Positions 7,966-23,595 of a stretch of DNA of 36,494 nt are shown here, piece by piece. Made by a program: the position numbers and the translations under genes. The DNA comes from an uncultured Planctomycetales bacterium (GTDB taxonomy: Bacteria > Omnitrophota > Gorgyraeia > Zapsychrales > JAHFFX01): assembly GCA_964571895.1 (NCBI GenBank), contig CAZNDW010000003.1:1-36494 (forward strand). Reading direction: 5' to 3'. The notes under the pieces were generated by a model. It saw only the letters and a list, made by a program, of their open reading frames with translations. It was not told the DNA's origin and did not search any database. Each line of letters starts with the position of its first letter. Position 1 is the stretch's first letter.

Positions 7966-7998
7966 GGAAAAGTGAGCCAAGAAAGGAGGCCGAACGCC

Positions 7999-9432
7999 AT
8001 GAGCAGTGTTTTTGATAAAAAACTTTTATCGACATACGCCATTAAAAATCAACTGGGCATAGCCTTGGGCTTGATTGGGGTCGCCTTTTTAGTTTTTCTG
8101 GGATATCTTTTGCCCGGGGTCTCCTCCTGGTTCGAGAATAAGACCCTTTTTTATGCGGTGATCTTCATTGTTTTTTTTATTTTGGTTTTGGGTTTTTTGA
8201 TCATTTGCCACATCGTGGAACCGATGGTCAAGATCAGCCAGGAAGCAAGATTTATCGCCGAGGGAGATTTCAACCGGGAGATCCAGCTATTTCGTGAAGA
8301 CGAGATTGGCCAATTGGGGGCGGCTTTAAACCACATGATCCATCGGATGAAAGCCAATGTCGAGGAATTAAAAAATTTTTCACAAACGACCGAAACCATT
8401 AATACGGAAATCAACCGGCGCGTTGTTACCCTGTCCAATCTTTTGGAGGTCAGTAACCTCATCGCCCAAAATGCCCAGCTTAAAGAAATTGTGGAAATCG
8501 GGGTGGGCAAATGCCTATCCTCAGGGATCATGACGTTTGCCGGACTGATCCTTAAGGATGAAAAGACGAGTGAGTATCACGTCTTTTATGTGAGTGGACA
8601 AAGAAGCGAGGAACTCCTTGCGCAAGGCATTCGGGATCTGAAAGTCACGCTTGGTTCCGGAGTCTTGGGTAAGGCGATTCTTAAACAAAAACCCATGGTC
8701 ATTGACAGCCAGACCGGCATGAGTCCCGAGATCAAAGAATTCAGGAATCAATTTGCGATCCCCAACGCTATCTTAGTTCCGATATCAGCCAAAGGAAATA
8801 TGTACGGATTGTTGATCGCGGGCAATGATGAAAAGAAATTCCTTTGTTCTAATGCGGAACGAGAGTTTTTGCAGTTGATTGCCAAACAGATTGCCATTGC
8901 TTACAGCAATGAGCTTCTGAAAAAAGAATTCGAGAGATCCGATACCCTGGACCGGCTGACCGGTCTTTTCAACACAACGTATATCGATCGGCATCTGCCG
9001 GAGGAGATCAAAAGGGCCGCGAGTTTTCAAAAGCCTTGTTCATTGGTCCTGATGGCCGTTGACCATTTCGAAGATTACCATACGGCCTTCGGCCATATGG
9101 CTGCGGAAAATGTTTTGACGAGGCTGGGATTTCTGCTGAAAGAAACGATGAGTGGTTTGGATCAGGCCGCGCGGTTTGGGGATCATACCTTTGTCTTGAT
9201 CCTGCCGGAAAAAAATAAACGCCACTCAATCGAAATAGCGGAAGGATTAAGAGGAAAAATAGAAGAACTTTTTTCCCCTGAGAAAGATCTCCACAAACGA
9301 TTAACCTCAAGCTTTGCGGTGACCGAGAACCCACTCGATGGGGCGAGTGCCCCAGAGCTCATCCGGAAGGCACAGGAGATTTTAAAAACGGCCCTCCAGC
9401 AAGGCGGAAACAGGGTCTGTCATAAGGCATAG
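7999..9432 (+). CDS. Membrane HAMP-GAF protein with a degenerate GGDEF domain
   Basis: From ORF 7972..9432. The ATG at 7999 follows AAGGAGG (7983-7989). The protein has two TM segments, a HAMP-like segment and a GAF-like middle region. The C-terminal GGDEF fold (DRLTGLFN...) has FGDHTF (9175-9192) in place of GG(D/E)EF. No RxxD I-site lies upstream of it. Confidence 0.8.
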   Translation: MSSVFDKKLLSTYAIKNQLGIALGLIGVAFLVFLGYLLPGVSSWFENKTLFYAVIFIVFFILVLGFLIICHIVEPMVKISQEARFIAEGDFNREIQLFREDEIGQLGAALNHMIHRMKANVEELKNFSQTTETINTEINRRVVTLSNLLEVSNLIAQNAQLKEIVEIGVGKCLSSGIMTFAGLILKDEKTSEYHVFYVSGQRSEELLAQGIRDLKVTLGSGVLGKAILKQKPMVIDSQTGMSPEIKEFRNQFAIPNAILVPISAKGNMYGLLIAGNDEKKFLCSNAEREFLQLIAKQIAIAYSNELLKKEFERSDTLDRLTGLFNTTYIDRHLPEEIKRAASFQKPCSLVLMAVDHFEDYHTAFGHMAAENVLTRLGFLLKETMSGLDQAARFGDHTFVLILPEKNKRHSIEIAEGLRGKIEELFSPEKDLHKRLTSSFAVTENPLDGASAPELIRKAQEILKTALQQGGNRVCHKA

Positions 9433-9482: not shown

Positions 9483-9944
9483 ATGAAACATTTTAAAAAG
9501 ACGACGAATAAGCCTTTGGGAGAACTTTTGGTAGAACGCGGCACGATCAATCGAGAAGAGTTGGAGATGGCCCTCAATTATCAAAAAGAGCAGGGGGGGC
9601 TCCTGGGAGATATTTTGGTGGAATTAAAATTTGCCCGGGAGGAAGATATTGCCCAAGCCTTAACGTGCCAATACGGGTTTCCTTATCTTCCTTTGTCCAA
9701 TTATGAGATCGATCCGGATGTGATCAATGCGATTCCCGAAAATGTGTGCCGGCAGTTTTGTCTGATTCCCATCGATAAAATCGGAAAGAGCTTGACCATG
9801 GCCATGGTGGATCCCCTGAACGTTCAGGCCATCGAAGACGTGGAGCTCGTCACCGGCTGCTCGGTCCAGACCTTCGTCAGCACCCCAACCGATATTAAAA
9901 ATTCCCTCAACAAGTACTATAAGACAAAATCATGTTCTCCTTAA
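9483..9944 (+). CDS. Standalone GspE/MshE N-terminal (T2SSE_N / MshEN-like) domain protein
   Basis: 153 aa. PLGELLVERGTINREELEMALNYQ is followed by LLGDILVELKFAREEDIAQAL and FCLIPIDK. There is no ATPase domain. Confidence 0.8.
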   Translation: MKHFKKTTNKPLGELLVERGTINREELEMALNYQKEQGGLLGDILVELKFAREEDIAQALTCQYGFPYLPLSNYEIDPDVINAIPENVCRQFCLIPIDKIGKSLTMAMVDPLNVQAIEDVELVTGCSVQTFVSTPTDIKNSLNKYYKTKSCSP

Positions 9945-11674
9945 AAGAACGCCTCAGAGAATTACTCATCGACACCCAGGTCATCAAAGAAGAAGATTTT
10001 CGCCGCGCTCTAGAAGAACACAAACAATTCGGCGGCGAATTCAGCAAAATTTTAGTCAAGCGAAATTTGATTCAGGAAGATCAGCTGACCTTGATCTTAA
10101 GTGAAGGATTGGATCTTCCTCCCGTTGATATCACCCGTCTTAAGATCAATCCAGAAATCCTGCGGAGTTTCCCCCAGGAATTGGCCCTCAAGTATCAGGT
10201 CATTCCTATTGCCAGAACAGGCGATCATTGGACTCTGGCCCTGTCCGATCCTCTCAATATTTTTGCCATTGAAGATTTAGACATCTTAAAAGGCCTGAAG
10301 ATCATCCCCATTATGAGCGACCCCAAAGGCATTGCCCAGGTCTTGGAGGTTTACTCCCTAGGGAGCACAGCGACAAAATTGGAAAAGATTATTCAAGACA
10401 GCAAGGAAACCGAGGAGGGCTCGTTGATCAAGGAGGCGATGGGGGATATGGATAAATCCGCCATCGAAAAACTGACCCAAGAGGCCCCGATCATTAAGCT
10501 CACCGATGCGATTATCAAACAAGCGGTTTTGGCCAAAGCGAGCGATGTCTTCATCGAGCCGATGGAGAAGACCTTGCGGATCCGCTATCGGATTGATGGG
10601 ATTATCCGGGAGATCGATCGCATGTCCAAGGTGTTGTATTTTCCGCTGGTATCGAGAATAAAAGTGATTTCCAATCTGGACATTTCCGAGCACCGTCTGC
10701 CCCAGGATGGACGGTTTAAGACGATCATGGAAGGAGAAAAGCAAGTGGATTTTCGGGTCAGTGTGCTTCCTACGATATTCGGAGAGAATGTTGTTTTTCG
10801 GATCTTGGATAAGAATTTGGAGATGCTCGATCTTCCCAAGCTGGGGTTTAATCAAAAATCCCTCAAGACCCTGCAGGAATGTTCCCAAAGACCCCATGGG
10901 ATGATTTTAACCTGCGGACCGACGGGTTCCGGCAAGACCACCACCTTGTATTCCGTCCTCAAATTCATTGACTCTCCCGAGAAGAATATCGTAACGGTCG
11001 AAGATCCTGTGGAATATCAAATGAAGGGGATCAACCAAGTGAACGTCAAGCCCCAGGTGGGGTTGACCTTTGCCAGCAGCCTTCGTTCCATCCTGAGGCA
11101 AGACCCCGATGTGATTCTGATTGGGGAAATCAGGGACACGGAGACCATGGACATTGCGGTGAAGGCGGCCTTAACCGGGCACCTCGTCTTAAGCTCCCTG
11201 CATACAACCACAGCGGCGGGATCGGTCATCCGGATGATGAATATGGGGGTTGAGCCCTTTCTGATGTGTTCTTCTGTGATTGCCGTCGTGGCGCAGCGGT
11301 TGGTGAGGAGAATCTGTGGTCCCTGCAAAGACTCTTATGCGGCGTCGCCGGTGTTGGTGGAGAAAGCAGGGTTTGAGAAGTTGTTTGGAAAAAAGAAAAT
11401 CGAATTATACCGGGGGCGGGGATGTCCGCATTGTTTTAATACCGGCTATAGCGGGCGGGTCATTATCAGTGAGATTCTTAAGCTCACCGCCAAGGTCAAG
11501 GAATTGATCCTGGGCCGTGTGGGGGAGCCCAAAATCAAACAAGCCGGGCGAGCCGAAGGGATGACCACCATGCGGGAAGACGGTCTTGCCAAGGCCTTGG
11601 AAGGAGTCACTTCGTTAGAAGAGGTGATGCGTGTCACGGCCCCCGATGAGGAGCTGGAGAAAGGCGCCTCTTAA
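9932..11674 (+). CDS. pilB: Type IV pilus assembly ATPase, PilB/GspE family (paralog 1)
   Basis: 580 aa with an N-terminal T2SSE_N domain. Motifs: Walker A GPTGSGKTT, Asp box VEDPVEY, Walker B DVILIGEIRD, His box TGHLVLSSLHT. Tetracysteine motif CGPC...CPHC. Confidence 0.9.
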   Translation: MFSLKERLRELLIDTQVIKEEDFRRALEEHKQFGGEFSKILVKRNLIQEDQLTLILSEGLDLPPVDITRLKINPEILRSFPQELALKYQVIPIARTGDHWTLALSDPLNIFAIEDLDILKGLKIIPIMSDPKGIAQVLEVYSLGSTATKLEKIIQDSKETEEGSLIKEAMGDMDKSAIEKLTQEAPIIKLTDAIIKQAVLAKASDVFIEPMEKTLRIRYRIDGIIREIDRMSKVLYFPLVSRIKVISNLDISEHRLPQDGRFKTIMEGEKQVDFRVSVLPTIFGENVVFRILDKNLEMLDLPKLGFNQKSLKTLQECSQRPHGMILTCGPTGSGKTTTLYSVLKFIDSPEKNIVTVEDPVEYQMKGINQVNVKPQVGLTFASSLRSILRQDPDVILIGEIRDTETMDIAVKAALTGHLVLSSLHTTTAAGSVIRMMNMGVEPFLMCSSVIAVVAQRLVRRICGPCKDSYAASPVLVEKAGFEKLFGKKKIELYRGRGCPHCFNTGYSGRVIISEILKLTAKVKELILGRVGEPKIKQAGRAEGMTTMREDGLAKALEGVTSLEEVMRVTAPDEELEKGAS

Positions 11675-11688
11675 GATGAGGTTCGAGG

Positions 11689-13395
11689 ATGAGTGAAACC
11701 TTAAAAGACCATATCATCAAAGCCTTGATCGAGCTGCGGCATCTGAAAAAAGAAGATATCGATGAGGCCTTGGCTTTACAGAAACAAAAAGGACTTCCTC
11801 TGGAGAAGGCCTTCATTGAGAAGGGCCTGATCACGGAGAAGGACTTGTTGATTTTGCTCATTAAAGAACTCAGAATCCCATCGATCAATTTGACGAAATA
11901 TAAAATTGATCCCGGCCTCAAAGCCGTCATTCCCGAACGGCTCGCCCGACAATACCACATTATCCCGATTTCCCAGCTGGGGGATACAATCACAATCGCC
12001 TTATCGAATCCTTGGAATATCTTTGCCATCGATGATTTGAGAAATATCACCGGTAAAGATATCGATGCCATCATGAGCACAGATTCCGAGATCATGAAGG
12101 CGATCGACCATTACTATGGGAGAAAGGCCACCAGCACGGTTGCGGAAATCAGCAAGGATATCTCTGTCGAGGGTTTGGAAATTATCTCCGAGCAAGAACA
12201 GGAAACGCTCGATACCACGGTCGATGCCAGTGAACAGGCCCCGATTATTCGCATGGTGGATTTGGTCATCACCGAGGCCATCAAGCAGAGGGCCTCGGAT
12301 ATCCATCTTGAGCCCACAGCAGAAAATATGCGCGTGCGCTACCGGATCGACGGAGTTTTGCAGGATATCCTGAATATTCCTAAAGAAAATCAGAATGCAA
12401 TTATTGTCCGGATCAAGATCATGTCGCGGCTGGATATCACCGCCTCCCGCATCCCTCAGGACGGGCGGTTCAAATTGCGTCTCGAGGAGAAAGAAATCGA
12501 TTTTCGGGTTTCCCTTTTGCCTACAACCTACGGCCAAAAGATCGTCATGCGGGTTTTGGACAAAAAGAATCTGGGGATCGGTTTGGATGGCTTGGGTTTT
12601 TCGAAAGAGGCCGTAGCGCAACTCCAAGAGGCGAGCACGAAACCTTTTGGGATGATCCTCGTCACGGGACCGACCGGCAGCGGAAAATCCACGACCCTTT
12701 ATTCGATCGTCAATCGGTTGAATACCGTTGATAAGAATATTATCACGGTCGAGGACCCGGTAGAGTACTTGATGGAAGGATTCACCCAGATTCAAGTCCG
12801 TCCCGAGATCGGGCTCAGTTTTGCCGCTGGATTGAGGTCCATTCTCCGCCAGAGCCCGGACATCGTGATGGTTGGAGAGATCCGGGACTCTGAAACCGCC
12901 GACATCGCCATCAAAGCCGCCTTGACTGGCCAGTTGGTTTTCTCGACCCTCCACACCAACGATGCCGCCGGCGCCCTCACCCGCTTGGTGGACATGGGGG
13001 TTGAGTCCTTTTTGGTTGCCTCCAGCCTCGTGACCGTCACGGCCCAGCGTCTGTGCCGGCAGATCTGTTCGCATTGCAAGGAACCGGTCGATATCCCATC
13101 CCCGGTCATTAAGGATTTGGGAATCAAAGTGCTGGCGGGGACAAAGTTTTATAAAGGAAAGGGGTGTGAGACGTGCCGAAAGACCGGATACCTGGGACGG
13201 CTCGGGATAACAGAAATCTTAAATGTGGATGACACGATCCGTGAGATGCTCCTTAAGGGTGATTCCTCCGACGAGATCAAGCGGTACGCTTGCCAGCACA
13301 ATCATATGACCACTTTAAGAGAAGATATCTTTCAGAAATTTACCTCGGGACTGACCACTCTGGAGGAAGTCCTCCGGATCACCACGGGTGATTAG
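11689..13395 (+). CDS. PilB/GspE-family ATPase (paralog 2, His-box variant)
   Basis: 568 aa with the same architecture as paralog 1. Motifs: GPTGSGKST, VEDPVEY, DIVMVGEIRD, CSHC...CETC. The His box reads TGQLVFSTLHT (first His replaced by Gln). Confidence 0.9.
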   Translation: MSETLKDHIIKALIELRHLKKEDIDEALALQKQKGLPLEKAFIEKGLITEKDLLILLIKELRIPSINLTKYKIDPGLKAVIPERLARQYHIIPISQLGDTITIALSNPWNIFAIDDLRNITGKDIDAIMSTDSEIMKAIDHYYGRKATSTVAEISKDISVEGLEIISEQEQETLDTTVDASEQAPIIRMVDLVITEAIKQRASDIHLEPTAENMRVRYRIDGVLQDILNIPKENQNAIIVRIKIMSRLDITASRIPQDGRFKLRLEEKEIDFRVSLLPTTYGQKIVMRVLDKKNLGIGLDGLGFSKEAVAQLQEASTKPFGMILVTGPTGSGKSTTLYSIVNRLNTVDKNIITVEDPVEYLMEGFTQIQVRPEIGLSFAAGLRSILRQSPDIVMVGEIRDSETADIAIKAALTGQLVFSTLHTNDAAGALTRLVDMGVESFLVASSLVTVTAQRLCRQICSHCKEPVDIPSPVIKDLGIKVLAGTKFYKGKGCETCRKTGYLGRLGITEILNVDDTIREMLLKGDSSDEIKRYACQHNHMTTLREDIFQKFTSGLTTLEEVLRITTGD

Positions 13396-13538: not shown

Positions 13539-14000
13539 ATGGGCTCAGCAGAGAAACCCAATATCCCAAGACCATTGATTGGGGAGATTCTGATCAAAAG
13601 GAATATGATCACCCCCAAGCAATTGGCGGAAGCCTTGGAGATTCAAAAGAAACAGGATGGCTTTATCGGAGAGATTTTGGTCAACCTCGGATACCTTGAG
13701 GAGAGGGACATCGTGGTTGCCTTGGTTGTCCAGTGCGGCCTTCCCTACATCGCCGTCAACAAATACGATATCGATCCTGGTGTCCTCAAACTCATCCCCA
13801 CGGAGGTCGCCCGGAATCTGCATGTGATTCCCTTGGATCGCGTGGGGGATGTGCTCAGTGTGGTCATGATCAATCCCTTGAATGAACCGTTAAAAGAACA
13901 ACTGAAGCAAATCACGGGCTGTCGCATCGCCCCCTTCATTGCCACAAAAACAGAGATCGATGAGACGATCGCTCGATTTTATCCCATCACGGCGGGATGA
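13539..14000 (+). CDS. Second standalone T2SSE_N / MshEN-like domain protein
   Basis: 153 aa. LIGEILIKRNMITPKQLAEALEIQ is followed by FIGEILVNLGYLEERDIVVAL and LHVIPLDR. A GGAGAG ribosome-binding site precedes the ATG. Confidence 0.8.
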   Translation: MGSAEKPNIPRPLIGEILIKRNMITPKQLAEALEIQKKQDGFIGEILVNLGYLEERDIVVALVVQCGLPYIAVNKYDIDPGVLKLIPTEVARNLHVIPLDRVGDVLSVVMINPLNEPLKEQLKQITGCRIAPFIATKTEIDETIARFYPITAG

Positions 14001-14179: not shown

Positions 14180-15388
14180 ATGATCATCTTTAAATACGTG
14201 GCCAAAGATCCTAATGCCAAAACTGTCACCGGCAAGATGGCCGCTGAGAATCAGATGACTGTGCTCGAGGAGCTCAGAAAGCGCAAGCTCATTGTGATTT
14301 CTATTTCTGAGATTAAAGGAATAACTCTCTTCAAGCCAGGGACAGGCAAGAAGAAGGTTAAACCCGATGACGTTGTGATCTTTGCCAGACAATTGAGCAC
14401 CATGGTGGAGGCCGGGATCCCCATCCTGCAGGCCTTGGATGCCTTGCAGGAGCAGATGACCAGTTCTCATTTTCAGAGTGTCATTGCCTCTATGCGAGAT
14501 GACATTCAGATGGGAAGCAGCCTTTCGGCGGCCTTTGCCAAACACCCAAGGGTCTTTGGAGCGTTTTTTATCAACATGGTGAAGGTCGGGGAAACGGGCG
14601 GAATTTTAAGCGCGATCCTGGATCGGGTTTCAACCTATATGGAAAAGATCCTGAAATTGCGGCGGAAGGTCCAATCTGCCATGGTGTATCCGATGGTTGT
14701 GATTTCCATGGCCGGTATTATTACGGTGGTTCTGCTGGTGAAGGTTGTCCCGACTTTTGCGACCATCTATCAATCTTTTAATAAAGATCTGCCGGCTATG
14801 ACGCAGTTTCTCATAAATATCAGCACGGTTTTGAAACAACAGCTCCTTTGGTATATCGCGGCAATTGTTATCCTCATTTTTATCATGTCCCGTTGGTATT
14901 GCACCCCCAAAGGGGCCTTGACCATTGATCGGATGAAATTGAGGATGCCCATTTTTGGTGAGCTGATTCGAAAAGTCGCCATCAGCCGTTTTTGCCGGAC
15001 TTTGGGCACCTTGATTCAAAGCGGAGTCCCCATCTTAGAATCGTTGGATATCGTCGGCAAGACCTCGGGAAATAAAGTGATCGAGGTCGTCACCGAGAAT
15101 ATTAAAAACAATGTCCGCGAAGGGGAAAGCATCGCCGTGCCGCTGGTTCGAAGCGGGGTTTTCCCTCCTATGGTTACCCGTATGATTGCGATCGGAGAGA
15201 AATCGGGACAGATGGAGAAGATGTTGACAAAGATCGCGGAATTTTATGATGATCAGGTGGACGCGGCTGTGGCCGGCTTGACCAGTATCATTGAACCGGT
15301 CATCATTGGATTTTTGGGGATTGTGGTGGGATTTATTGTGATCGCGTTATTTTTACCGATTCTGAGCATCACTCAGCTTCTCAAATAA
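14180..15388 (+). CDS. pilC: Type IV pilus platform protein PilC (GspF family)
   Basis: About 402 aa starting at MIIFKYVAKDPNAKTVTGKM, a typical PilC N-terminus. It has two GspF repeats and three TM segments. The ORF is also open from ATG 13997, which forms an ATGA overlap with the upstream stop. Those 61 extra codons are mostly the palindromic element. Confidence 0.85.
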   Translation: MIIFKYVAKDPNAKTVTGKMAAENQMTVLEELRKRKLIVISISEIKGITLFKPGTGKKKVKPDDVVIFARQLSTMVEAGIPILQALDALQEQMTSSHFQSVIASMRDDIQMGSSLSAAFAKHPRVFGAFFINMVKVGETGGILSAILDRVSTYMEKILKLRRKVQSAMVYPMVVISMAGIITVVLLVKVVPTFATIYQSFNKDLPAMTQFLINISTVLKQQLLWYIAAIVILIFIMSRWYCTPKGALTIDRMKLRMPIFGELIRKVAISRFCRTLGTLIQSGVPILESLDIVGKTSGNKVIEVVTENIKNNVREGESIAVPLVRSGVFPPMVTRMIAIGEKSGQMEKMLTKIAEFYDDQVDAAVAGLTSIIEPVIIGFLGIVVGFIVIALFLPILSITQLLK

Positions 15389-15417: not shown

Positions 15418-16239
15418 ATGGGAAAAATGAGAAAATCGGTTTTTTTCTTATCTTTGATGATAGGTCTTATTCTATGGTCAACCGATATTTATGCCGAAAC
15501 AGAAGCACCCTCATTGGAGGGTAGTTTGAAACAGAGTCTCACCAATTTTAGAAAGAGCGTTGAAGAATTAAAGAAAAACAATGATCTCTTAAGGGAGCAG
15601 ATTAAGGCATTGCGGCTTGAGGCACTGAAATTCCAGGAAACTCTTAAGTCTTTATCGTCTGAGGAGCCGACACGCCAGCGAGAGGAATTCCAGGGCTTAG
15701 AGAAAACAATCAGAGAGCTCAAAGAAAAAGAGAATCATTTGATGGAAGAACTCTCCCACAGACAAACCGCTGCCGAAGGGTTAAAACAAGAATATCATCA
15801 GTTGAATGAACCTTTGGCCGCCATCGAACACAATGCCAACCCCCTTCAGCGTAGTCGAAAGGTTGATCCTAAAAGCCTCTCCGGAAAGCGGGAACAATTA
15901 AAAAAAGAATATCTGAAAGGAAATCAAGAATTGGATGTTTTGTTAAACGAAGAGAAGACTCTGCAGCAAGAGATATCCCGTATCGAACAGCCCCGGGATC
16001 AGAAGCTCATGGCTCTTGAGAAAGAAATCCAAGATTTAAGATCAAAAGGCGAGGCCTTTGCCAGCGCTTTGACACAGATTCGCCAGAGCTTTGACGAGGA
16101 CGAATTTCTCAGTGCCCGATCCTTAAGAGACGAAAAAAAGCTGCAGGAGACTCTGGATCTTTTACAAAAAGAGAATGAGGTTCTGACCGAAAAACTGTTA
16201 AGGTTATTGATGCAGACAAGGAATGGCTTAGACCGATGA
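15418..16239 (+). CDS. Secreted coiled-coil protein, function unknown
   Basis: 273 aa with a signal peptide (FFLSLMIGLILWSTDIYA/ET). The remainder is E/K/L/Q-rich coiled coil. It lies between pilC and the pilin gene. Confidence 0.75.
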   Translation: MGKMRKSVFFLSLMIGLILWSTDIYAETEAPSLEGSLKQSLTNFRKSVEELKKNNDLLREQIKALRLEALKFQETLKSLSSEEPTRQREEFQGLEKTIRELKEKENHLMEELSHRQTAAEGLKQEYHQLNEPLAAIEHNANPLQRSRKVDPKSLSGKREQLKKEYLKGNQELDVLLNEEKTLQQEISRIEQPRDQKLMALEKEIQDLRSKGEAFASALTQIRQSFDEDEFLSARSLRDEKKLQETLDLLQKENEVLTEKLLRLLMQTRNGLDR

Positions 16240-16257
16240 TTATTTAGGCTACTCGGT

Positions 16258-16287
16258 TTGACACTGAGTCTTTGGGCATGTTATACT
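16258..16287 (+). promoter_or_regulatory. Candidate sigma70-type promoter upstream of the riboswitch-like element
   Basis: TTGACA (16258-16263), 18-nt spacer, TATACT (16282-16287). Confidence 0.45.
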
Positions 16288-16304
16288 TACATTGACTCTT
16301 CGAT

Positions 16305-16374
16305 GGCGCCCCCGCCTTTGGCGGGGGGCGCCTCTCAGAGTTGCCCTGAGCAAGCCCCGCCCTGAAGGGCGGGG
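16305..16374. repeat. Pair of GC-rich hairpins
   Basis: GGCGCCCCCGCC-TTT-GGCGGGGGGCGCC (16305-16332) and GCCCCGCCC-TGAA-GGGCGGGGC (16353-16374). No T-run follows either one. Confidence 0.7.
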
Positions 16375-16400
16375 CGAGTCGAAGGGTTGACAATTGAGAA

Positions 16401-16510
16401 GATCATGATAAAGGTAAACCATTCGTAAGAATGGGGCACAAAGCTAGAGGGTTCTGCTTTGCCCCGATTGAAAACGTCGGGACTTTGCAGGACAGCCAGT
16501 TACCATGATG
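16401..16510 (+). promoter_or_regulatory. c-di-GMP-I (GEMM) riboswitch-like aptamer
   Basis: GGUAAACCAUUCGUAAGAAUGGGGCACAAAGC (16413-16444) matches the remembered V. cholerae Vc2 core at 27 of 32 positions. It has a GNRA-capped hairpin and a second hairpin, GUUCUGC / GCAGGAC. The closing segment is AGCCAGUUACC. P1 is AUCAU / AUGAU. Confidence 0.7.
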
Positions 16511-16533
16511 AAGAAGGGCGTTTGAGGCTTTGA

Positions 16534-16575
16534 CCTATTCTACGGGTGTGCGGGTTGGTAGAATAGGTTTTTTTA
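16534..16575 (+). terminator. Intrinsic terminator (likely riboswitch expression platform)
   Basis: 10-bp perfect stem CCTATTCTAC (16534-16543) / GTAGAATAGG (16558-16567) with a 14-nt loop, followed by TTTTTTT. Confidence 0.8.
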
Positions 16576-16588
16576 TTTGGGAAAGAAA

Positions 16589-16616
16589 TTGACAAGACAT
16601 TGGGTAATGATACAAT
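16589..16616 (+). promoter_or_regulatory. Sigma70-type promoter with extended -10, upstream of the pilin gene
   Basis: TTGACA (16589-16594), 16-nt spacer ending in TGA, TACAAT (16611-16616). It would give a 5' UTR of about 155 nt. Confidence 0.5.
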
Positions 16617-16776
16617 CGACTTAAGAATGTGATCCGAGTCGAAGAGCCATCAATAGGCCGGGAAGATGTGAGAGAGTAAAGAAGCAACCGTCATCATCCT
16701 TATTGGACGCCTCTTCTCTTCTGGGTCTGCAGTTTCGGCGAAAGCGGCTTAATCACGATCCAGAAAGGGGGGAAAG

Positions 16777-17181
16777 ATGATGAAGAGAATAAGAAAGAAC
16801 CATCGGGGATTCACCTTGGTCGAGATTATGATCGTTGTGGCGATCATTGCGCTCTTGGCCGCGATTGCGATCCCGAACCTGCTGAGGGCGAAGATATCGG
16901 CCAACGATGCCTCTGCACGGGCGACCTTAAGAGCGTTGTCCACCGCATCCGAAACCTTCGCGACCTCCAACAACGGCAATTATCCTGCGACCATGACCGA
17001 TCTGACGGGCGCGACACCACCGTACATCAACACCGACTACTGTGGCGCGACCGTATCGGGGTATGCGTTCACCTGCACAAACGCGGCGGGAAGCTATACG
17101 TATGTCGCCACGCCGGTGACGGTCGGGACCTCAGGAACCACAACGTACACCATCACGACCGGAGGTGTTTTGACACCATAG
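16777..17181 (+). CDS. pilA: Type IV major pilin
   Basis: 134 aa. The canonical prepilin signal is KNHRG/FTLVEIMIVVAIIALLAAIAIPNLL. The C-terminal half is small and T/G/A-rich. The start is ATG 16777 or 16780. Confidence 0.9.
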   Translation: MMKRIRKNHRGFTLVEIMIVVAIIALLAAIAIPNLLRAKISANDASARATLRALSTASETFATSNNGNYPATMTDLTGATPPYINTDYCGATVSGYAFTCTNAAGSYTYVATPVTVGTSGTTTYTITTGGVLTP

Positions 17182-17296: not shown

Positions 17297-17330
17297 TTGG
17301 GTGGTCTTCGGCAAGAAATGGATGGGAATC

Positions 17331-17732
17331 ATGGTCAAAAAACTTTTATCTAAGGCGTTTACTCTGCCCGAGCTTTTACTTGTGGCTGCGATCTTGGGTT
17401 ATGCGGTGTCGGTCGTGCTGCTGACCTTTATTAATAGTGCGGCGCTTAATGAAGCCAGCCGTAATTTAACCGCGGCCACGACCCACGCCGAATTTGTCAT
17501 GGAAAATATCAAGAATACCACTTTTCCCAGTATCGCAACCAATATCAGCAACGGCACCTGGACCTGGGATACAGCAGCCGTGACGAGTCATGGGTTAACG
17601 GCTTTAAATACGGAAAGCATCTCTACAATTTCGACAGGAACCAATCCGTTGGATATTACCGTGACGGTGGCTTGGAACGACACCCGAGGAAGGAGCCGGT
17701 CCAAAATCTTAAGGACTTTGATCTCAGGATGA
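17331..17732 (+). CDS. Minor pilin / pseudopilin with prepilin-like N-terminus
   Basis: From ORF 17301..17732. MVKKLLSKA/FTLPELLLVAAILGYAVSVVLL carries the FTLxE hydrophobic N-terminal motif, with Ala rather than Gly at -1. The start is uncertain (GTG 17301, ATG 17322 or ATG 17331). Confidence 0.75.
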   Translation: MVKKLLSKAFTLPELLLVAAILGYAVSVVLLTFINSAALNEASRNLTAATTHAEFVMENIKNTTFPSIATNISNGTWTWDTAAVTSHGLTALNTESISTISTGTNPLDITVTVAWNDTRGRSRSKILRTLISG

Positions 17733-18199
17733 TGAATACAAAAGCTTATACCTTAGTTGAGGCCTTGGTCAGTCTCCTGATCCTTTCTTTTGTCCTATTA
17801 GGAGTGTATGGGGTTTTATTGACAGGTAATACCGTTTTTATCAAAGATACAACGTTGCTCGATATGCAGCAACAAACGAGAAACGCAGGGGATCGCATCG
17901 TCCGGGAGGTTCGCCAAGCGTCCTCTCAGACGATTACGGCGAATTATAACAGCACAACCAATGACAAGATCGTTTTCACGATTCCCACGGCCACGGGAAT
18001 CCAATATTATTTAAGCGGTACCAATTTGATCAGGGAATATCCCGCAGGAACAACCCGAACCATCGCCAGCAATATCGGGGTTTTGAAATTCACGTTGACC
18101 GGGTCGCTTTTAACGATTCAAATCAGGGCCGATCAAACGATCTATGCGCAAACCACGTCTTTCGCGCTCACACAGAACGTGAGGTTAAGAAATGAATAA
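17729..18199 (+). CDS. Minor pilin / pseudopilin
   Basis: From ORF 17672..18199. The ATG at 17729 overlaps the upstream stop codon. MMNTKA/YTLVEALVSLLILSFVLLGVYGVLL also has Ala at -1. Confidence 0.75.
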   Translation: MMNTKAYTLVEALVSLLILSFVLLGVYGVLLTGNTVFIKDTTLLDMQQQTRNAGDRIVREVRQASSQTITANYNSTTNDKIVFTIPTATGIQYYLSGTNLIREYPAGTTRTIASNIGVLKFTLTGSLLTIQIRADQTIYAQTTSFALTQNVRLRNE

Positions 18200-19430
18200 A
18201 AGGGGCTCCATCGTCTTTGCTTTTTTACTCACTCTGGTTCTAACCGTTCTGGGCGCAGCCATTTTTTCAAGAAGCGTTAACGAAAATTTGTCGGCCCAGC
18301 GCATGGCCAATTCTTCTGCCGCTTTCTGGGCGTCTGAGGCCGGGCTGCAAAAAGTATTGTGGGAATATAATTACAATAACTGTCAAGGCATGGTGCAGGA
18401 GGGAACAAGCACGGCTTGTGCCAGCTGCACCAGCTGTGGCGGCGGCAATAAAGCTGTGGCGGGAATTTTGACCGGCTATGGGGATTATGACGTGACGCTC
18501 AATAACGCCAACACAACGATTCAGTCCATCGGTTCGATCCCCCACCGCAATTCCACCCAGAAAATTCAGCGCAAGGTTCAAGCGACCCTTGGCAAACCGG
18601 CTATTTTCAGCAATGGTATTTTTGCCCAAGGGCAGGTGAATTTATCGAATAATGCGCTGGTGGATTCTTATAATTCTAATGACGGCCCTTATGGCGGATC
18701 GAATATTCACAGCAATGGAAATGTAGGGAGTAACGGGACAAGCACCGGTATCATTACAATTAGCAATAATGCCGTGGTCAACGGCAATGTTTCCACTGGC
18801 CCCAACGGGACTGTGACCCTGGGCAATAACGCAACGATTTCTGGCACGACCACGCATAATAATAGTGTGGCCTTGCCGGCGGTCGTTGTTCCGTCTACTT
18901 TAACGGCGCTCTCGAGCAGCGGGACATTGAGTCTTAGCAATGGCGCCTCCGGCACAATCAATGCCGGGGATTACAAATACAGCAGTATCAGTTTATCCAA
19001 CGACAGCTTCTTGACCATTAATGGGGATGTGCGTCTGTATTTGACGGCCAGCGATACCTTAAGCACGGGAAACAACGCGGCGATCACGATCGCCAGCGGT
19101 GCCAGCTTAACGGTTTATACGGACGGGGTGATCACCTTCGCCAACAATATCAGCATTAATACAGTTTCGCAGCTTCCGTCAAAATTTCAGATTTATAGCA
19201 CTTATACGGGGAGTGACGGCGTAACTCTGAATAACAATGGGACGAGTTATGCCTCTATTTATGCCCCACAGACAGATGTTGATATTAGTAATAACAATCA
19301 ATTTTATGGAGCGGTCGTCGGCAAGACAGTCGACTTGAACAACAACGGTCAAATCCATTATGATGAAGCCTTAGCGACGATGGCCAATCCGTTTGAAAAT
19401 GCGATTTTGAGCAATTGGCAGGAATATTAA
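18192..19430 (+). CDS. PilX-N-like pilus protein with N/S/T/G-rich C-terminal repeat region
   Basis: 412 aa. The N-terminus KRGSIVFAFLLTLVLTVLGAAIF plus ANSSAAFWASEAGL resembles PilX N-terminal domains. The remainder has degenerate repeats such as SNNALV, SNNAVVNGNVS and GNNATISG. It follows the minor pilins. Confidence 0.7.
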   Translation: MNKRGSIVFAFLLTLVLTVLGAAIFSRSVNENLSAQRMANSSAAFWASEAGLQKVLWEYNYNNCQGMVQEGTSTACASCTSCGGGNKAVAGILTGYGDYDVTLNNANTTIQSIGSIPHRNSTQKIQRKVQATLGKPAIFSNGIFAQGQVNLSNNALVDSYNSNDGPYGGSNIHSNGNVGSNGTSTGIITISNNAVVNGNVSTGPNGTVTLGNNATISGTTTHNNSVALPAVVVPSTLTALSSSGTLSLSNGASGTINAGDYKYSSISLSNDSFLTINGDVRLYLTASDTLSTGNNAAITIASGASLTVYTDGVITFANNISINTVSQLPSKFQIYSTYTGSDGVTLNNNGTSYASIYAPQTDVDISNNNQFYGAVVGKTVDLNNNGQIHYDEALATMANPFENAILSNWQEY

Positions 19431-19554: not shown

Positions 19555-20628
19555 ATGCATTTATTATTAGAAAAGTACCTCCAAACCATCAAGAGCTTTA
19601 TCCCCTCCAAGAGTGCTGTTTCTTCGGTCGGATTAGATATCGAGCCGGAATCCTGCAAGGCCGTTGAGTTGGTGAAAAGCGGAGACTCCTTTGAGATCCT
19701 CAATTGGACGGTTGAGCCTGTGGACAATGCCGATCTTGAGAGTGCCATAAAAAAAATATTCGCCCGGTTAAACCTCTCCTCCAAGGCCCCCTATACGGCG
19801 GTCTCCGGTAAAGGGGCTCTCGTCCGGTATATCGACATGCCCCGCATGCCCCGGGAAGACCTCAAGAAGTCTTTTGATCTTGAGGCGGACCGCTACTTTC
19901 CCTTCGCCCATGACCAGATTTATACGGACTGTTATGTTCTTAATCCCGAGGCCCCGGAGAAACAGATGTCGGTTCTGGTGGCCGCGGCCAAGAAAGAAAT
20001 CATTCATGAGCGAATGGAGCTTTTGACTCGTCTGGGGTTTATCTCGTCTTTCATCGGGATCAATTCCCTGGCCATTGCCAATGTCTTTCACACTTATGGG
20101 AAGCGGATTGCGACCGACACCTCTGCGGAGGGCAGCCAGCCGACCGCCTGGGCGGTTTTGGACATGGAAGAGACCGGGAGCAGTCTCTTGGTTCTCGTGG
20201 ATCATCTCCCGCGGTTTAACCGCGACATCTTTGTGGGGGGGAAAGATTTAACCAAAAAGATCAGCAATCTCTTAGGGTTAAGCCTCGGCGAGGCCCAAAA
20301 ACTGCGGCAGGAACCGCACGATCGGCTCGCGGACGTCCTGAATATCTGTGAGTCGGTTTTAATGAATCTGGTCTCCGAGGTGAGGTTTTCCTTTGATTAT
20401 TTCACGACCGAGCACAATATCCCGATCTCAAAATTATTCTTAAGCGGCGGATCGTCTTTATTATCGGGAGTTCTGGAGAGTTTTTCCAAAAATTTAGACA
20501 TCCCCGTCGAACGATGGGACCCCGTTCAATATTTCCAATTAGCCCCGAGTATCTCGGGTGTGGAAATCCATAAAAATGCCGGTCAGTTGGGCGTGGCTTT
20601 AGGGCTGGCCTTATACGAATATGATTGA
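19555..20628 (+). CDS. pilM: Type IV pilus assembly protein PilM (actin-like)
   Basis: 357 aa. It begins VGLDIEPESCKAVEL and has an ASKHA-like fold signature (LSGGSSLLSG). It precedes pilNOPQ. Confidence 0.85.
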   Translation: MHLLLEKYLQTIKSFIPSKSAVSSVGLDIEPESCKAVELVKSGDSFEILNWTVEPVDNADLESAIKKIFARLNLSSKAPYTAVSGKGALVRYIDMPRMPREDLKKSFDLEADRYFPFAHDQIYTDCYVLNPEAPEKQMSVLVAAAKKEIIHERMELLTRLGFISSFIGINSLAIANVFHTYGKRIATDTSAEGSQPTAWAVLDMEETGSSLLVLVDHLPRFNRDIFVGGKDLTKKISNLLGLSLGEAQKLRQEPHDRLADVLNICESVLMNLVSEVRFSFDYFTTEHNIPISKLFLSGGSSLLSGVLESFSKNLDIPVERWDPVQYFQLAPSISGVEIHKNAGQLGVALGLALYEYD

Positions 20629-21208
20629 GATCAATCTCATCCCTTCCCAGTTAAGGAAAAAACGCAAGGGAACCACGTTCTCTGGCTTTAATTTAAATTT
20701 TCCGCCGGAGGCTGTGGTGGGCTTTGTGGGAGGGTTGATTGTTGCATTGGCGCTCATTCACGTTTTGCTTTTAGGTCTTCTTTGGAGTAAGGTGGCTCAA
20801 AAAAACAGGCTGGAGAAATCCTGGCAGAATTTCCTTCCCCAAAAGCAAAGGGCCGATCGGCTGCTCAATGAATGGCGCGGCCTCCAGAGTAAAAAAACCG
20901 CCATTGAAAAGATGACCATCGAGCGCAGGATCCTGTGGGCTCCCAAACTCAATGCCTTAACCGACAGCATTCCCCGGGGGGTATGGCTTAATAAAGTCCG
21001 TCTGGAGGGCGGGATCCTGATGATTGAGGGAAGTGTGATCTCTAAGATGGCTGATGAGATGGGCAGTGTGGGGGCGTTCACAACGAATCTCAAAACCCAG
21101 AAGCAGTTCCTGGGCAACTTAAAAAATATTGAAGTCGGGCCGCTCCAAAGAAGGAAAATTCAAACAACCGAGATTGCCGACTTTTCCATCACCGCCAAAG
21201 TGCAATGA
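20621..21208 (+). CDS. pilN: Type IV pilus assembly protein PilN
   Basis: 195 aa. IEINLIPSQLRKKRK is followed by a single TM helix. It overlaps pilM by 8 nt. Confidence 0.8.
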   Translation: MIEINLIPSQLRKKRKGTTFSGFNLNFPPEAVVGFVGGLIVALALIHVLLLGLLWSKVAQKNRLEKSWQNFLPQKQRADRLLNEWRGLQSKKTAIEKMTIERRILWAPKLNALTDSIPRGVWLNKVRLEGGILMIEGSVISKMADEMGSVGAFTTNLKTQKQFLGNLKNIEVGPLQRRKIQTTEIADFSITAKVQ

Positions 21209-21822
21209 AAATTCTAGGTCCTCTTTATAATCTGATCCCCAAGATCGACGATAAAAACCGTTATTATATTCTGGGGGCCGTGCTGATTGTCATTTTATTG
21301 CTTTATTATTTCCTTTTGATGCACCCCTGTCTGAGCAATTGGGGTACGCTCAATGCCAAGATAGCAACGCTCAAAGGAGCTCTGGAGCAGACCCAAGAGA
21401 GTATTGCGAAAATGGGTTTCTACCAGTCGCAGATTGCGGGCCTTCAGGAGGTGTTGCAGAAATCCGAGTATGAGATTCCGATGCAAGAAGAGATCCCTCT
21501 TATTTTAGGAGGGATCTCTCATCTGGCGAATCAAAATGATGTTAAAATAGATCAAATGGTACCCGACAAGTCTTTCCAGGAATTGCTCCTGACCGATAAA
21601 GATGGGAAATATTATTCTTTCCCTATCCAGGTGCAGGCCCGGGCGGGTTATCATGATATCGGCCGCTTTATCGACCAGCTAGAAAAGGACAAAACTTTTA
21701 AGAATGTCACTCTATTCGCGATTGCTGCGAATCCAGATGATCCCCTGCGCCACTCTTTGAATCTGACGATCAGAGTCGTGATTTTGGAGAAACAAGAAGG
21801 AGCGGATCCAGCGGGCCCATGA
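21205..21822 (+). CDS. pilO: Type IV pilus assembly protein PilO
   Basis: 205 aa with an N-terminal TM helix, a coiled coil and a ferredoxin-like C-terminus. ATGA overlap with pilN. Assigned by synteny. Confidence 0.75.
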   Translation: MKILGPLYNLIPKIDDKNRYYILGAVLIVILLLYYFLLMHPCLSNWGTLNAKIATLKGALEQTQESIAKMGFYQSQIAGLQEVLQKSEYEIPMQEEIPLILGGISHLANQNDVKIDQMVPDKSFQELLLTDKDGKYYSFPIQVQARAGYHDIGRFIDQLEKDKTFKNVTLFAIAANPDDPLRHSLNLTIRVVILEKQEGADPAGP

Positions 21823-22163
21823 ACATTTTTATCATTCTTATGCTTCTTGGAATCGTCCCTTTAGGGTGGGCCGAGGAGCCGCCTTTTGTTTATCAGGATC
21901 ACGGCAAAAGGGATCCCTTCTGGAAGCTGGTGACCCCCAGTGGAGCGGTTATGAATTATGACACCGATATCTCGATTTCGGATATGCTGCTGGAAGGCAT
22001 TATCGCGGGTCCGGAAGGCAGCAACTTAGCCATCGTGAATAACACCATCGTCAAACCTAATGATCGAATTGGCCCTTTTATTATTGAGAAGATCGAGAAC
22101 GACAAAGTCTTTTTGAGGAATGGTGATGAGAATTTTGTCCTCAAACTGCAAAAGGAGGAATAG
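21819..22163 (+). CDS. PilP-like small periplasmic pilus assembly protein
   Basis: 114 aa with a signal peptide and the RDPF motif (GKRDPFWK). It lies between pilO and the secretin gene. Confidence 0.65.
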   Translation: MNIFIILMLLGIVPLGWAEEPPFVYQDHGKRDPFWKLVTPSGAVMNYDTDISISDMLLEGIIAGPEGSNLAIVNNTIVKPNDRIGPFIIEKIENDKVFLRNGDENFVLKLQKEE

Positions 22164-22164
22164 A

Positions 22165-23595
22165 ATGCTCAAAATTGCGGTCCCAGCGCTTATCGGTGTG
22201 GGGTTGGCGTTTGTTTGTGCTTATGCGCAAGTCCCTCCCGATAGCCCCTTAATGAATTCCGAGATTCCTATTGAGGGGACGCCATCGGGGGCACAGATCC
22301 CGCAGGCTGCCGATATGACCTCAGCCTCATCTTCAGAGAGTCGAGAAACATCGGTCTCTCGGCCGGGCAATGTCACTTTGGATCTTCGTGACGCCGATAT
22401 CAGAAATGTCCTTAGGATTCTGGCTTATAAAAGCGGAGTCAATATCGTGGCGGGGCCGGAGGTTGTGGGTTTGGTGACGATCCACTTGAGGGATGTGCCT
22501 TGGCAACGGGCCCTGGATGTGATCCTTTCCACCTACGGATATGGCTATGACCGCCAAGCCAATATCATCACGGTGACAACGATTGAAAACTTGAAGAAAC
22601 GCCGCGAAGACGCTCAGCTCCTTGCGGAACAAGAGCCCTTAACCACCAAGACCTTCACCTTAAATTTTGCGAAGGCCTCCCTTGTGATCGCTTCGATTGA
22701 AAAAATGAAAACGTCCCGCGGCTCGATCAACTTTGATGAGCGAACCAATACCCTGATCGTGCGGGACATCTCCAGCAATGTCGATTTGTTCGGAGAGGTG
22801 ATTTCTACCTTGGATACAACCACCCCGCAGGTCTTGATTGAAGCCAAAGTGATTGAGACGACCCTCAACAATACAGAAAATTTGGGAATCGACTGGGTGA
22901 TCAAGGCCACAACCACCGGCGCCAAGAGACCCCACATCTGGCCGTTTGCCAGCCGAGAAACCTCTAACAAATTTCTGCCGGACGCTATCCCCGCCGCCTC
23001 CTCAACGGAGTTCTCCTATGGAACAATAAATTTTGCCCAGTTGCAGGCGGTCTTGGAATTGCTGAGGACCAGAAGCAACACCAATATCCTTTCCAATCCC
23101 AGGATTGTGACGCTCGATAACCAACAGGCCAAGATTGTGGTGGGGTCGCAGTATCCCATCCCCACGTACACCTACAATGAGCAGCAGGCCAGGCTTCAGG
23201 TCTCGGGTTGGGAGTATAAGGATATCGGCATCATTTTTGATGTGACGCCCCACGTCAACCAGGCAGGTTTTGTGACGCTCGATATCGAGCCTCAGATAAC
23301 GGATATCCTCGATTTTGTGACGGTAGAAAACACACAGCTGCCCCGTTTAAGCAATGAGACAGCAAAAACCCAGGTGATGATTAAAGACGGAGAGACCTTG
23401 GTCATCGCCGGTCTCATCAAGGATAAGTTGACGGACACTAAGAAAAAAGTGCCTCTCTTAGGGGATGTGCCGATCTTGGGCCTTTTATTCCAGAAGTCAG
23501 AAAAGACGAAGGTCAAAACCGATCTTTTGATTTTCCTGACACCCCACATCATTACGCCCAATCCAGAGTCCGCGGGGCCCCCGGCCACTCAATAA
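22165..23595 (+). CDS. pilQ: Type IV pilus secretin PilQ
   Basis: From ORF 22120..23595. The ATG at 22165 follows AAGGAGG (22152-22158). It has a signal peptide (AFVCAYA/Q) and a secretin N-domain (VTLDLRDADIRNVLRILA). The C-terminal secretin core includes SNPRIVTLDNQQAKI, VPLLGDVPILGLLF and LLIFLTPHI. Confidence 0.9.
   Translation: MLKIAVPALIGVGLAFVCAYAQVPPDSPLMNSEIPIEGTPSGAQIPQAADMTSASSSESRETSVSRPGNVTLDLRDADIRNVLRILAYKSGVNIVAGPEVVGLVTIHLRDVPWQRALDVILSTYGYGYDRQANIITVTTIENLKKRREDAQLLAEQEPLTTKTFTLNFAKASLVIASIEKMKTSRGSINFDERTNTLIVRDISSNVDLFGEVISTLDTTTPQVLIEAKVIETTLNNTENLGIDWVIKATTTGAKRPHIWPFASRETSNKFLPDAIPAASSTEFSYGTINFAQLQAVLELLRTRSNTNILSNPRIVTLDNQQAKIVVGSQYPIPTYTYNEQQARLQVSGWEYKDIGIIFDVTPHVNQAGFVTLDIEPQITDILDFVTVENTQLPRLSNETAKTQVMIKDGETLVIAGLIKDKLTDTKKKVPLLGDVPILGLLFQKSEKTKVKTDLLIFLTPHIITPNPESAGPPATQ

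Follow-up and report, generated by a model that had tools for sequence, protein, structure and literature searches.

A class I c-di-GMP aptamer and intrinsic terminator ahead of a type IV pilin gene in uncultivated Omnitrophota, proposed as a transcriptional off-switch

The window, meaning the whole stretch of 36,494 nucleotides that was analysed, carries a cluster of type IV pilus genes. Homologues of its PilC protein belong to Candidatus Omnitrophota. The genes surrounding the element under study are arranged as follows.

7972-9432: HAMP-GAF-GGDEF protein
9483-9944: MshEN-only protein
9932-11674 and 11689-13395: two PilB-type ATPases with MshEN domains
13539-14000: second MshEN-only protein
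14180-15388: PilC
15526-16239: coiled-coil protein
16240-16776: intergenic region of 537 nt
16777-17181, forward strand: type IV pilin gene, 134 aa, with a prepilin N-terminal methylation motif (PF07963, E 3.6e-10)
17301-19430: two further prepilin-like genes and a DUF7305 gene
19555-23595: pilMNOPQ

A previous, sequence-only reading of this DNA had placed the element between pilC and the pilin gene. Its nearest upstream neighbour is the gene for the coiled-coil protein, and pilC lies one further up. On the other side, the pilin gene heads a block of pilin, minor-pilin and pilMNOPQ genes. The pilus cluster encodes four MshEN domains and one GGDEF-domain protein, and MshEN is listed among the c-di-GMP-binding domains (PMC12448109). 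The two free-standing MshEN-only proteins, each of about 150 aa (PF05157, E ~1e-20), flank the two MshEN-bearing PilB ATPases. Read by eye, the HAMP-GAF-GGDEF protein, whose gene heads the cluster, has RFGDHTF at the expected GGDEF motif and SGLD at the would-be RxxD inhibitory site. The protein probably lacks cyclase activity and may serve as a receptor. The intergenic region upstream of the pilin gene is identical in three metagenome contigs and, read on the forward strand, holds the following features.

16258-16287, forward strand: promoter P1 of the riboswitch transcript, TTGACA-18-TATACT with TG before the -10 element, 11/12
16297-16391, forward strand: 95-nt insertion in the leader, outside the conserved cassette and absent from the nearest relative (L004)
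16402-16509, forward strand: c-di-GMP-I aptamer, from RF01051 and structure kept in relatives
16419-16446, forward strand: proposed antiterminator strand on the aptamer side, covering the P1a hairpin and the CACAAAGCU junction (RNAduplex)
16525-16548, forward strand: proposed downstream antiterminator strand, covering the bases before the terminator, its 5' arm and part of its loop (RNAduplex)
16533-16574, forward strand: intrinsic terminator with an 11-bp perfect stem, a 14-nt loop and seven U
16589-16616, forward strand: promoter P2, 3' of the terminator, TTGACA-16-TACAAT with TG before the -10 element, 11/12
16623-16776, forward strand: pilin leader, about 155 nt from P2, with a CGUCAUCAU-like motif at 16689-16701 and a CU-rich tract at 16707-16721

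The aptamer belongs to a well-known family. An Rfam scan matched RF01051 (c-di-GMP-I) at 16403-16507 on the forward strand with 54.6 bits against a gathering score of 35 (E 3.8e-8), and the alignment spans the full model, positions 1-87 of 87. This is the sole Rfam match above gathering score in the whole 36.5-kb window. The comparison had been proposed beforehand as a check on the class I assignment, which it upheld, and the sequences and coordinates then quoted for the aptamer, its hairpins, the terminator and the P2 site are all correct. An E-value scan of 16200-16850 returned no credible match aside from the aptamer. The class II model (RF01786) had no match either in the gathering-score scan of the whole window or in the E-value scan of 16200-16850 up to E = 5. 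We regard it as nearly certain that the element is a c-di-GMP-I aptamer with a terminator. It is a fresh example of the family, in a new lineage and ahead of a pilin gene.

The aptamer core at 16413-16444 reads GGTAAACCATTCGTAAGAATGGGGCACAAAGC. Helix P1 is formed by AUCAUG (16402-16407) and CAUGAU (16504-16509). P1a extends over 16414-16439, with an inner hairpin made by CCATTC (16419-16424) and GAATGG (16429-16434) around a GTAA loop, the GUAA tetraloop of the RNA at 16425-16428. P1b covers 16442-16501, within which GTTCTGC (16451-16457) pairs with GCAGGAC (16487-16493). Class I aptamers dock a GNRA tetraloop of P1a into P1b, and GUAA is a sequence of the GNRA type. Relative to the RF01051 model, P1b of the window carries a 28-nt insertion, and the consensus CUAA receptor segment is deleted in the alignment, which we take to be as expected for the GYRA-loop subtype. 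The closing strand AGCCAGTTACC is found at 16494-16504, where UUACC (16500-16504) contains C92. G20, A47 and C92 (Vc2 numbering) are the ligand contacts in the Vc2 crystal structures, and all three are canonical in the alignment to the Rfam consensus. A47 is A16440, the first A once the P1a helix closes, and C92 is C16503. G20, already thought to be retained, is G16413, the unpaired G ahead of the first P1a pair. We infer from the sequence that the window aptamer would bind c-di-GMP. The lowest-energy fold of 16395-16580 has the P1, P1a and P1b stems as well as a 12-bp terminator hairpin.

Related loci carry the same arrangement. When 38 PilC-linked loci were scanned with Rfam, matches to the c-di-GMP-I clan were found in many of them, 1-2 kb downstream of PilC. 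Adding a pattern search and visual inspection to the Rfam matches led to 26 cassettes, from 22 related loci and the window, including copies with very long insertions that were truncated or missed by the Rfam model. The cassettes are conserved across loci with PilC proteins only 60-81% identical. Their order comprises a sigma-70-like promoter P1, the aptamer, a spacer of 15-38 nt, a hairpin followed by 5-9 U, usually P2, a leader of 120-270 nt and the pilin gene. A pilin gene with the GFTLVEIM motif follows the T run at 125-517 nt in every one of the 26 cassettes. Where two tandem pilin genes are present (L005, L007, L011), each has its own cassette. The switch thus comes with a promoter of its own and is bound to pilin genes, and P2 belongs to the conserved design.

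The aptamer structure is maintained by sequence changes among the relatives. Across 16 compact relatives, 99.3% of cells are paired in the canonical structure compared with 31-49% in shifted registers, and four aptamer pairs change on both sides in the same 16 sequences. Compensatory changes are seen in P1, P1a and P1b alike. Helix P1 covaries across cassettes, with CAUG/CAUG, UGUG/CACA, UUUUUUG/CAAAAAG (UUUG/CAAA) and UGCAGU/GCUGCG (GCAG/CUGC) all represented. In some aptamers, C44 is immediately followed by an insertion of some 40 to 250 nt (GGGGC, insertion, ACAAAGC); others have long P1b insertions. Insertion-bearing examples are L004:7363-7707, L011:8220-8395 and 8888-9063, and L038:4263-4374, together with aptamers in L006, L009, L010, L016 and L020. 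A CCCGA...UCGGGAC hairpin module recurs in such insertions, including P1b of the window (16463-16482).

Promoter equivalents were scored against an E. coli-like sigma-70 consensus, which may not be that of Omnitrophota. At a score of at least 10/12, 22 of the 25 related cassettes have an equivalent of promoter P1 (TTGACA / TATACT type) whose end lies 15-45 nt ahead of the aptamer core; the window's promoter P1 was scored apart from this count and is displaced from the usual distance because of the 95-nt insertion. The riboswitch's own promoter had been missed in the sequence-only reading, which suggested that the switch might gate only read-through from upstream genes. Such a role is less likely because a conserved promoter directly precedes the aptamer. 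The same reading had noted a promoter between the terminator and the pilin gene as an oddity. The site is there, but it is no oddity: equivalents of P2 (TTGACA / TAGAAT type) reach at least 10/12 in 20 of the 26 cassettes, often 9-16 nt past the T run. A promoter scan of the 26 cassettes found no recognisable P2 in L005a, L007a, L022 and L037. The site is weak elsewhere, with only a 9/12 site in L012 and a distant 10/12 site with a poor -35 element in L008. The pilin transcript of the four cassettes without a recognisable P2, and of L012, must therefore pass the terminator. Both promoters are presumably active.

In about ten relatives (L009, L011, L014, L015, L016, L019, L020, L026, L030, L038 and others), the spacer between the -35 and -10 elements of P2 includes a conserved purine-rich motif, AAAGGAGGUG, that looks like a ribosome-binding site. 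Promoter spacers are normally not conserved, in contrast to this motif. The window is without it.

The 95-nt insertion is specific to the window's leader, and the sequence of L004 joins precisely across the insertion point. It consists of a 90-nt GC-rich palindromic element plus a repeated TTGAC, whose two direct copies (16292-16296 and 16387-16391) flank the element. The insertion folds independently as a three-way junction, and 16294-16580 has a z-score of -6.5. It looks like a small inserted element. A multi-copy mobile element was considered and rejected, as no second copy is present in the window or in 41 loci. A scan of metagenomes for the insertion recovered the bare first hairpin only; it forms a terminator-like stem in L043, a locus that shares its metagenome of origin with L003.

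The terminator too recurs in every cassette. Its stem in the window (16533-16543 with 16558-16568) is 11 nt long and 100% complementary, and seven T follow at 16568-16574. An intrinsic terminator had been proposed from the letters, and a hairpin with a run of 5-9 T is indeed found in 26 of 26 cassettes. It begins 24 nt past the aptamer in the window and 15-38 nt past it in relatives. The stem reads CCUAUUC...GAAUAGG in most cassettes, and the sequence of the preceding spacer is not conserved. Resemblance of this stem to the aptamer hairpin had raised the idea of strand exchange, and the comparison of cassettes supports it. In the proper register, pairing between the first eight positions of the terminator and the aptamer positions opposite them holds in 89% of cells, compared with 36-67% in shifted registers; the stem is conserved and the spacer is not. 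Conservation of the terminator stem could have some cause other than antitermination.

A specific alternative pairing emerges from duplex predictions. The best partner of 16419-16446 in the window is 16525-16548 (22 bp, -26.4 kcal/mol by RNAduplex), in three segments: CAAAGCU/GGCUUUG, AGAAUGGG/CCUAUUCU and CAUUCGU/ACGGGUG. In about 18 of the 26 cassettes, RNAduplex likewise pairs the terminator 5' arm and the preceding 12 nt best with aptamer positions 9-37, that is, the P1a 3' arm and the ACAAAGCU junction holding A47. In 13 of 26 cassettes, the window among them, a transcript cut before the terminator 3' arm has the antiterminator as its lowest-energy fold, with P1a disrupted. Full-length transcripts have the terminator in their lowest-energy fold in 22 of 26. 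The energy gained by interaction of aptamer and tail averages -7.3 kcal/mol, compared with -3.3 for shuffled tails; 8 of 23 cassettes are at the 5% level or lower. The window itself gains -6.0 kcal/mol versus -2.4, a value that 8% of shuffles reach or beat. Taken one cassette at a time, the second antiterminator helix reaches significance in just 4 of 26. A clear antiterminator was not found in several of the cassettes, most plainly L010, L019, L027 and L038, and it is weak in L015 and L022 as well. No both-sided changes in the antiterminator pairing were seen among the cassettes compared. The aptamer side is almost invariant, so the complementarity is kept only via one-sided changes and G-U pairs. 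The aptamer arm is altered in the window and in L011, where a G-U pair becomes A-U.

The two states of the window transcript differ in stability depending on how much RNA has been made. Before the terminator 3' arm exists, the antiterminator fold reaches -48.2 kcal/mol compared with -42.2 when the parts fold separately. In the full-length transcript, the terminator state (-58.0 kcal/mol) is more stable than the forced antiterminator state (-48.8 kcal/mol). The choice would thus be kinetic and made during transcription, as in other terminator-based riboswitches.

We suggest that the element acts as a transcriptional off-switch on the main type IV pilin gene. Transcription would start at promoter P1, and the aptamer would fold while being made. 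Without c-di-GMP, the downstream strand would invade the P1a hairpin and the ligand-binding junction to form an antiterminator. The terminator 5' arm would then be tied up, and the polymerase could read through into the pilin gene. With c-di-GMP bound, P1a and the junction would be locked, the terminator could form, and read-through from P1 would stop. The terminated transcript would measure about 280 nt, or about 185 nt if the genome-specific insertion were removed. Transcripts from P2 would yield pilin mRNA that bypasses the switch. The off direction follows from folding models: the terminator shares no bases with the aptamer, so that a folded aptamer leaves the terminator free, and the only conserved alternative pairing consumes aptamer elements. 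The strong P2 just past the terminator limits how far the switch can change pilin levels. We hold the full model, a class I c-di-GMP riboswitch repressing pilin transcription by termination, to be moderately probable.

Several known systems bear on this model. The Vc2 riboswitch in the tfoY leader of Vibrio cholerae contains an aptamer of the same c-di-GMP-I family and is a reported off-switch, and class I c-di-GMP riboswitches of Clostridioides difficile are reported to be mainly off-switches (10.1101/617340). The tfoY locus also has promoters both upstream and downstream of the aptamer, such that some transcripts bypass the switch, and its riboswitch transcripts accumulate as short RNAs through c-di-GMP-dependent stability (10.1101/617340). 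Vc2 differs in that it is reported without termination in vitro, whereas the window aptamer is followed by a textbook intrinsic terminator. The gene 3' of Vc2 is a regulator and not a pilin. The Cd1 riboswitch at C. difficile flgB likewise combines a class I aptamer with a terminator, and c-di-GMP causes termination (PMC6366702). Cd1 controls flagellar genes with no second promoter described past the terminator, while the window has a pilin gene and P2. The antiterminator predicted for the window from its sequence would, unlike that of Cd1, use an internal P1a arm and the junction. Similar in gene context is Cdi-2-4 at C. difficile pilA1: there, too, the major type IV pilin gene directly follows a c-di-GMP riboswitch and its terminator (PMC6366702). 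Cdi-2-4 is however a class II aptamer and an on-switch in which c-di-GMP promotes read-through, whereas the window holds a class I aptamer for which the opposite direction is proposed. Repression of a pilin gene by c-di-GMP would run counter to the pilA1 case, in which c-di-GMP turns pilin on (PMC6366702).

Alternative explanations have to be weighed against the off-switch. Chance resemblance or a decayed, functionless relic is exceedingly improbable given the E-value for RF01051, the conservation of the cassette despite the divergence of PilC and the compensatory changes in all helices. A more serious alternative is a stand-alone small RNA. Here, the RNA made from promoter P1 through aptamer and terminator would always end, P2 would be the sole real pilin promoter, and c-di-GMP would alter the stability or activity of the RNA. 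The greater stability of the terminator state at full length, by about 9 kcal/mol, would fit such a scenario, as would the near-consensus P2 kept close behind the U run in most cassettes. The tfoY riboswitch offers a precedent, as its transcripts mostly end as small RNAs and mRNA arises from downstream promoters (10.1101/617340). The cassettes with no recognisable P2 (L005a, L007a, L022, L037), or with only the 9/12 site of L012, are difficult to reconcile with P2 as the sole pilin promoter. All 26 cassettes also lie directly upstream of a pilin gene, with one cassette per tandem pilin in L005, L007 and L011. Furthermore, the conserved complementarity between terminator arm and aptamer would have no role in a small RNA. 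The short RNA showed no conserved pairing with the pilin leader, and the ribosome site is equally accessible in P1 and P2 transcripts. We consider the stand-alone RNA somewhat unlikely on balance. In a related reading, which we think doubtful, the unit is less a leader than a conserved small RNA of Omnitrophota that stands free and binds c-di-GMP, with a strong promoter and a constant terminator stem. Its abundance, or read-through across P2, would set pilin output indirectly. If true, control would take an indirect route such as ligand-dependent stability or promoter interference, and the conserved terminator sequence would reflect the small RNA's own function.

The direction of switching could also be the reverse of the proposed off-switch, with c-di-GMP preventing termination and raising pilin expression, as happens at pilA1 of C. 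difficile. An on-switch would be the expectation from other type IV pilus systems (PMC6366702), and MshEN-domain ATPases are encoded in the same cluster. Yet the spacing of the terminator, 24 nt from the aptamer and 15-38 nt in relatives, and the lack of bases in common with helix P1 mean that a ligand-bound aptamer cannot sequester the terminator. The only conserved alternative pairing moreover takes away aptamer elements and not terminator elements. An on-switch is accordingly quite unlikely in our judgement.

The ligand itself might be different, either another cyclic dinucleotide such as 3'3'-cGAMP or the unknown ligand of the GGC variant class. The variant model RF03167 (c-di-GMP-I-GGC) scores 56.9 bits on the window, near but below its gathering score of 59. 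Rfam labels the aptamers of nine relatives as RF03167 (L005, L007, L008, L015, L019, L027, L030, L037, L040). The meaning of the GGC variant was taken from the RF03167 consensus, GCGAA with G at position 47. The window, unlike that consensus, has A at 47 within CACAAAGC; so do the three RF03167 matches whose alignments were inspected (L037 and the two L005 copies), in line with the canonical class. The remaining relatives with this label fit the A47 core pattern, and the pattern search returned ACAAAGC sequences only. GGC-variant identity was hence rejected, on the basis of A47 in the three aligned relatives and the sub-threshold score of the window. The RF03167 label is an artefact of competition between clan models because the aligned sequences have A at 47. 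Such labels, which do not reflect altered ligand contacts, could mislead automated annotation.

Recognition of c-AMP-GMP is the other variant to consider. The changed contact nucleotide of GEMM-Ib riboswitches is A at position 20, and those of Geobacter are placed directly at pilus genes. They share the same fold, carry the changed ligand-contact nucleotide and are tied to exoelectrogenesis, a process in which conductive pili take part (PMC9481103). At position 20 the window has G (16413) and lacks the A expected of a GEMM-Ib aptamer. One relative, L029 (5463-5580), and no other, has A instead of G at G20 (AGUAAACC). This is the mark of GEMM-Ib riboswitches that sense c-AMP-GMP, yet the L029 aptamer belongs to the same pilin cassette. 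The L029 record is labelled Lysobacterales, and the locus looks like Omnitrophota. The near-threshold RF03167 score and the A in L029 leave some room for a different ligand. Against it stand G20, A47 and C92 of the window, the missing G47 in the window and the three aligned relatives, and neighbouring genes related to c-di-GMP. We regard a ligand other than c-di-GMP as very unlikely.

The proposed off-switch would link c-di-GMP signalling directly to a type IV pilin gene through an RNA sensor in an uncultivated Omnitrophota lineage. The locus provides a concrete and testable handle on pilus regulation in bacteria that are very small and possibly depend on a host. The conserved arrangement of a terminator between two promoters carries the tfoY/Vc2 precedent to a distant phylum, and an antiterminator invading the ligand-binding junction, as predicted here, would extend that precedent likewise.

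The pilin leader has features of its own. A CGUCAUCAU-like motif lies about 75-95 nt ahead of the start codon in pilin leaders, followed by a CU-rich tract able to pair with the ribosome-binding site, and both are present too in loci without a riboswitch (L028, L031, L034, L041). The window leader has UCAUCAUCCUU at 16691-16701, with its complement AAAGAUGAUGA at the start codon (16773-16783). For 17 leaders, RNAalifold gave a consensus without any pairs, and the window's leader folds no better than shuffled sequence (z +0.5). A decoy mechanism, in which read-through RNA frees the ribosome-binding site of the pilin gene, was rejected: the unpaired probability of the site and start codon is about equal in P2 and P1 read-through transcripts across 17 cassettes. 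The ribosome-binding site of the window is less accessible in the P1 read-through transcript. An exact 10-nt repeat, ATGATGAAGA, occurs at 16505-16514, at the 3' strand of aptamer helix P1, and at 16777-16786, at the pilin start codon, with a complement at 16691-16701. Chance alone would give about 0.6 exact 10-mer repeats in 1.1 kb. Of relevance to this repeat, helix P1 sequences vary in relatives, whereas the leader motif does not.
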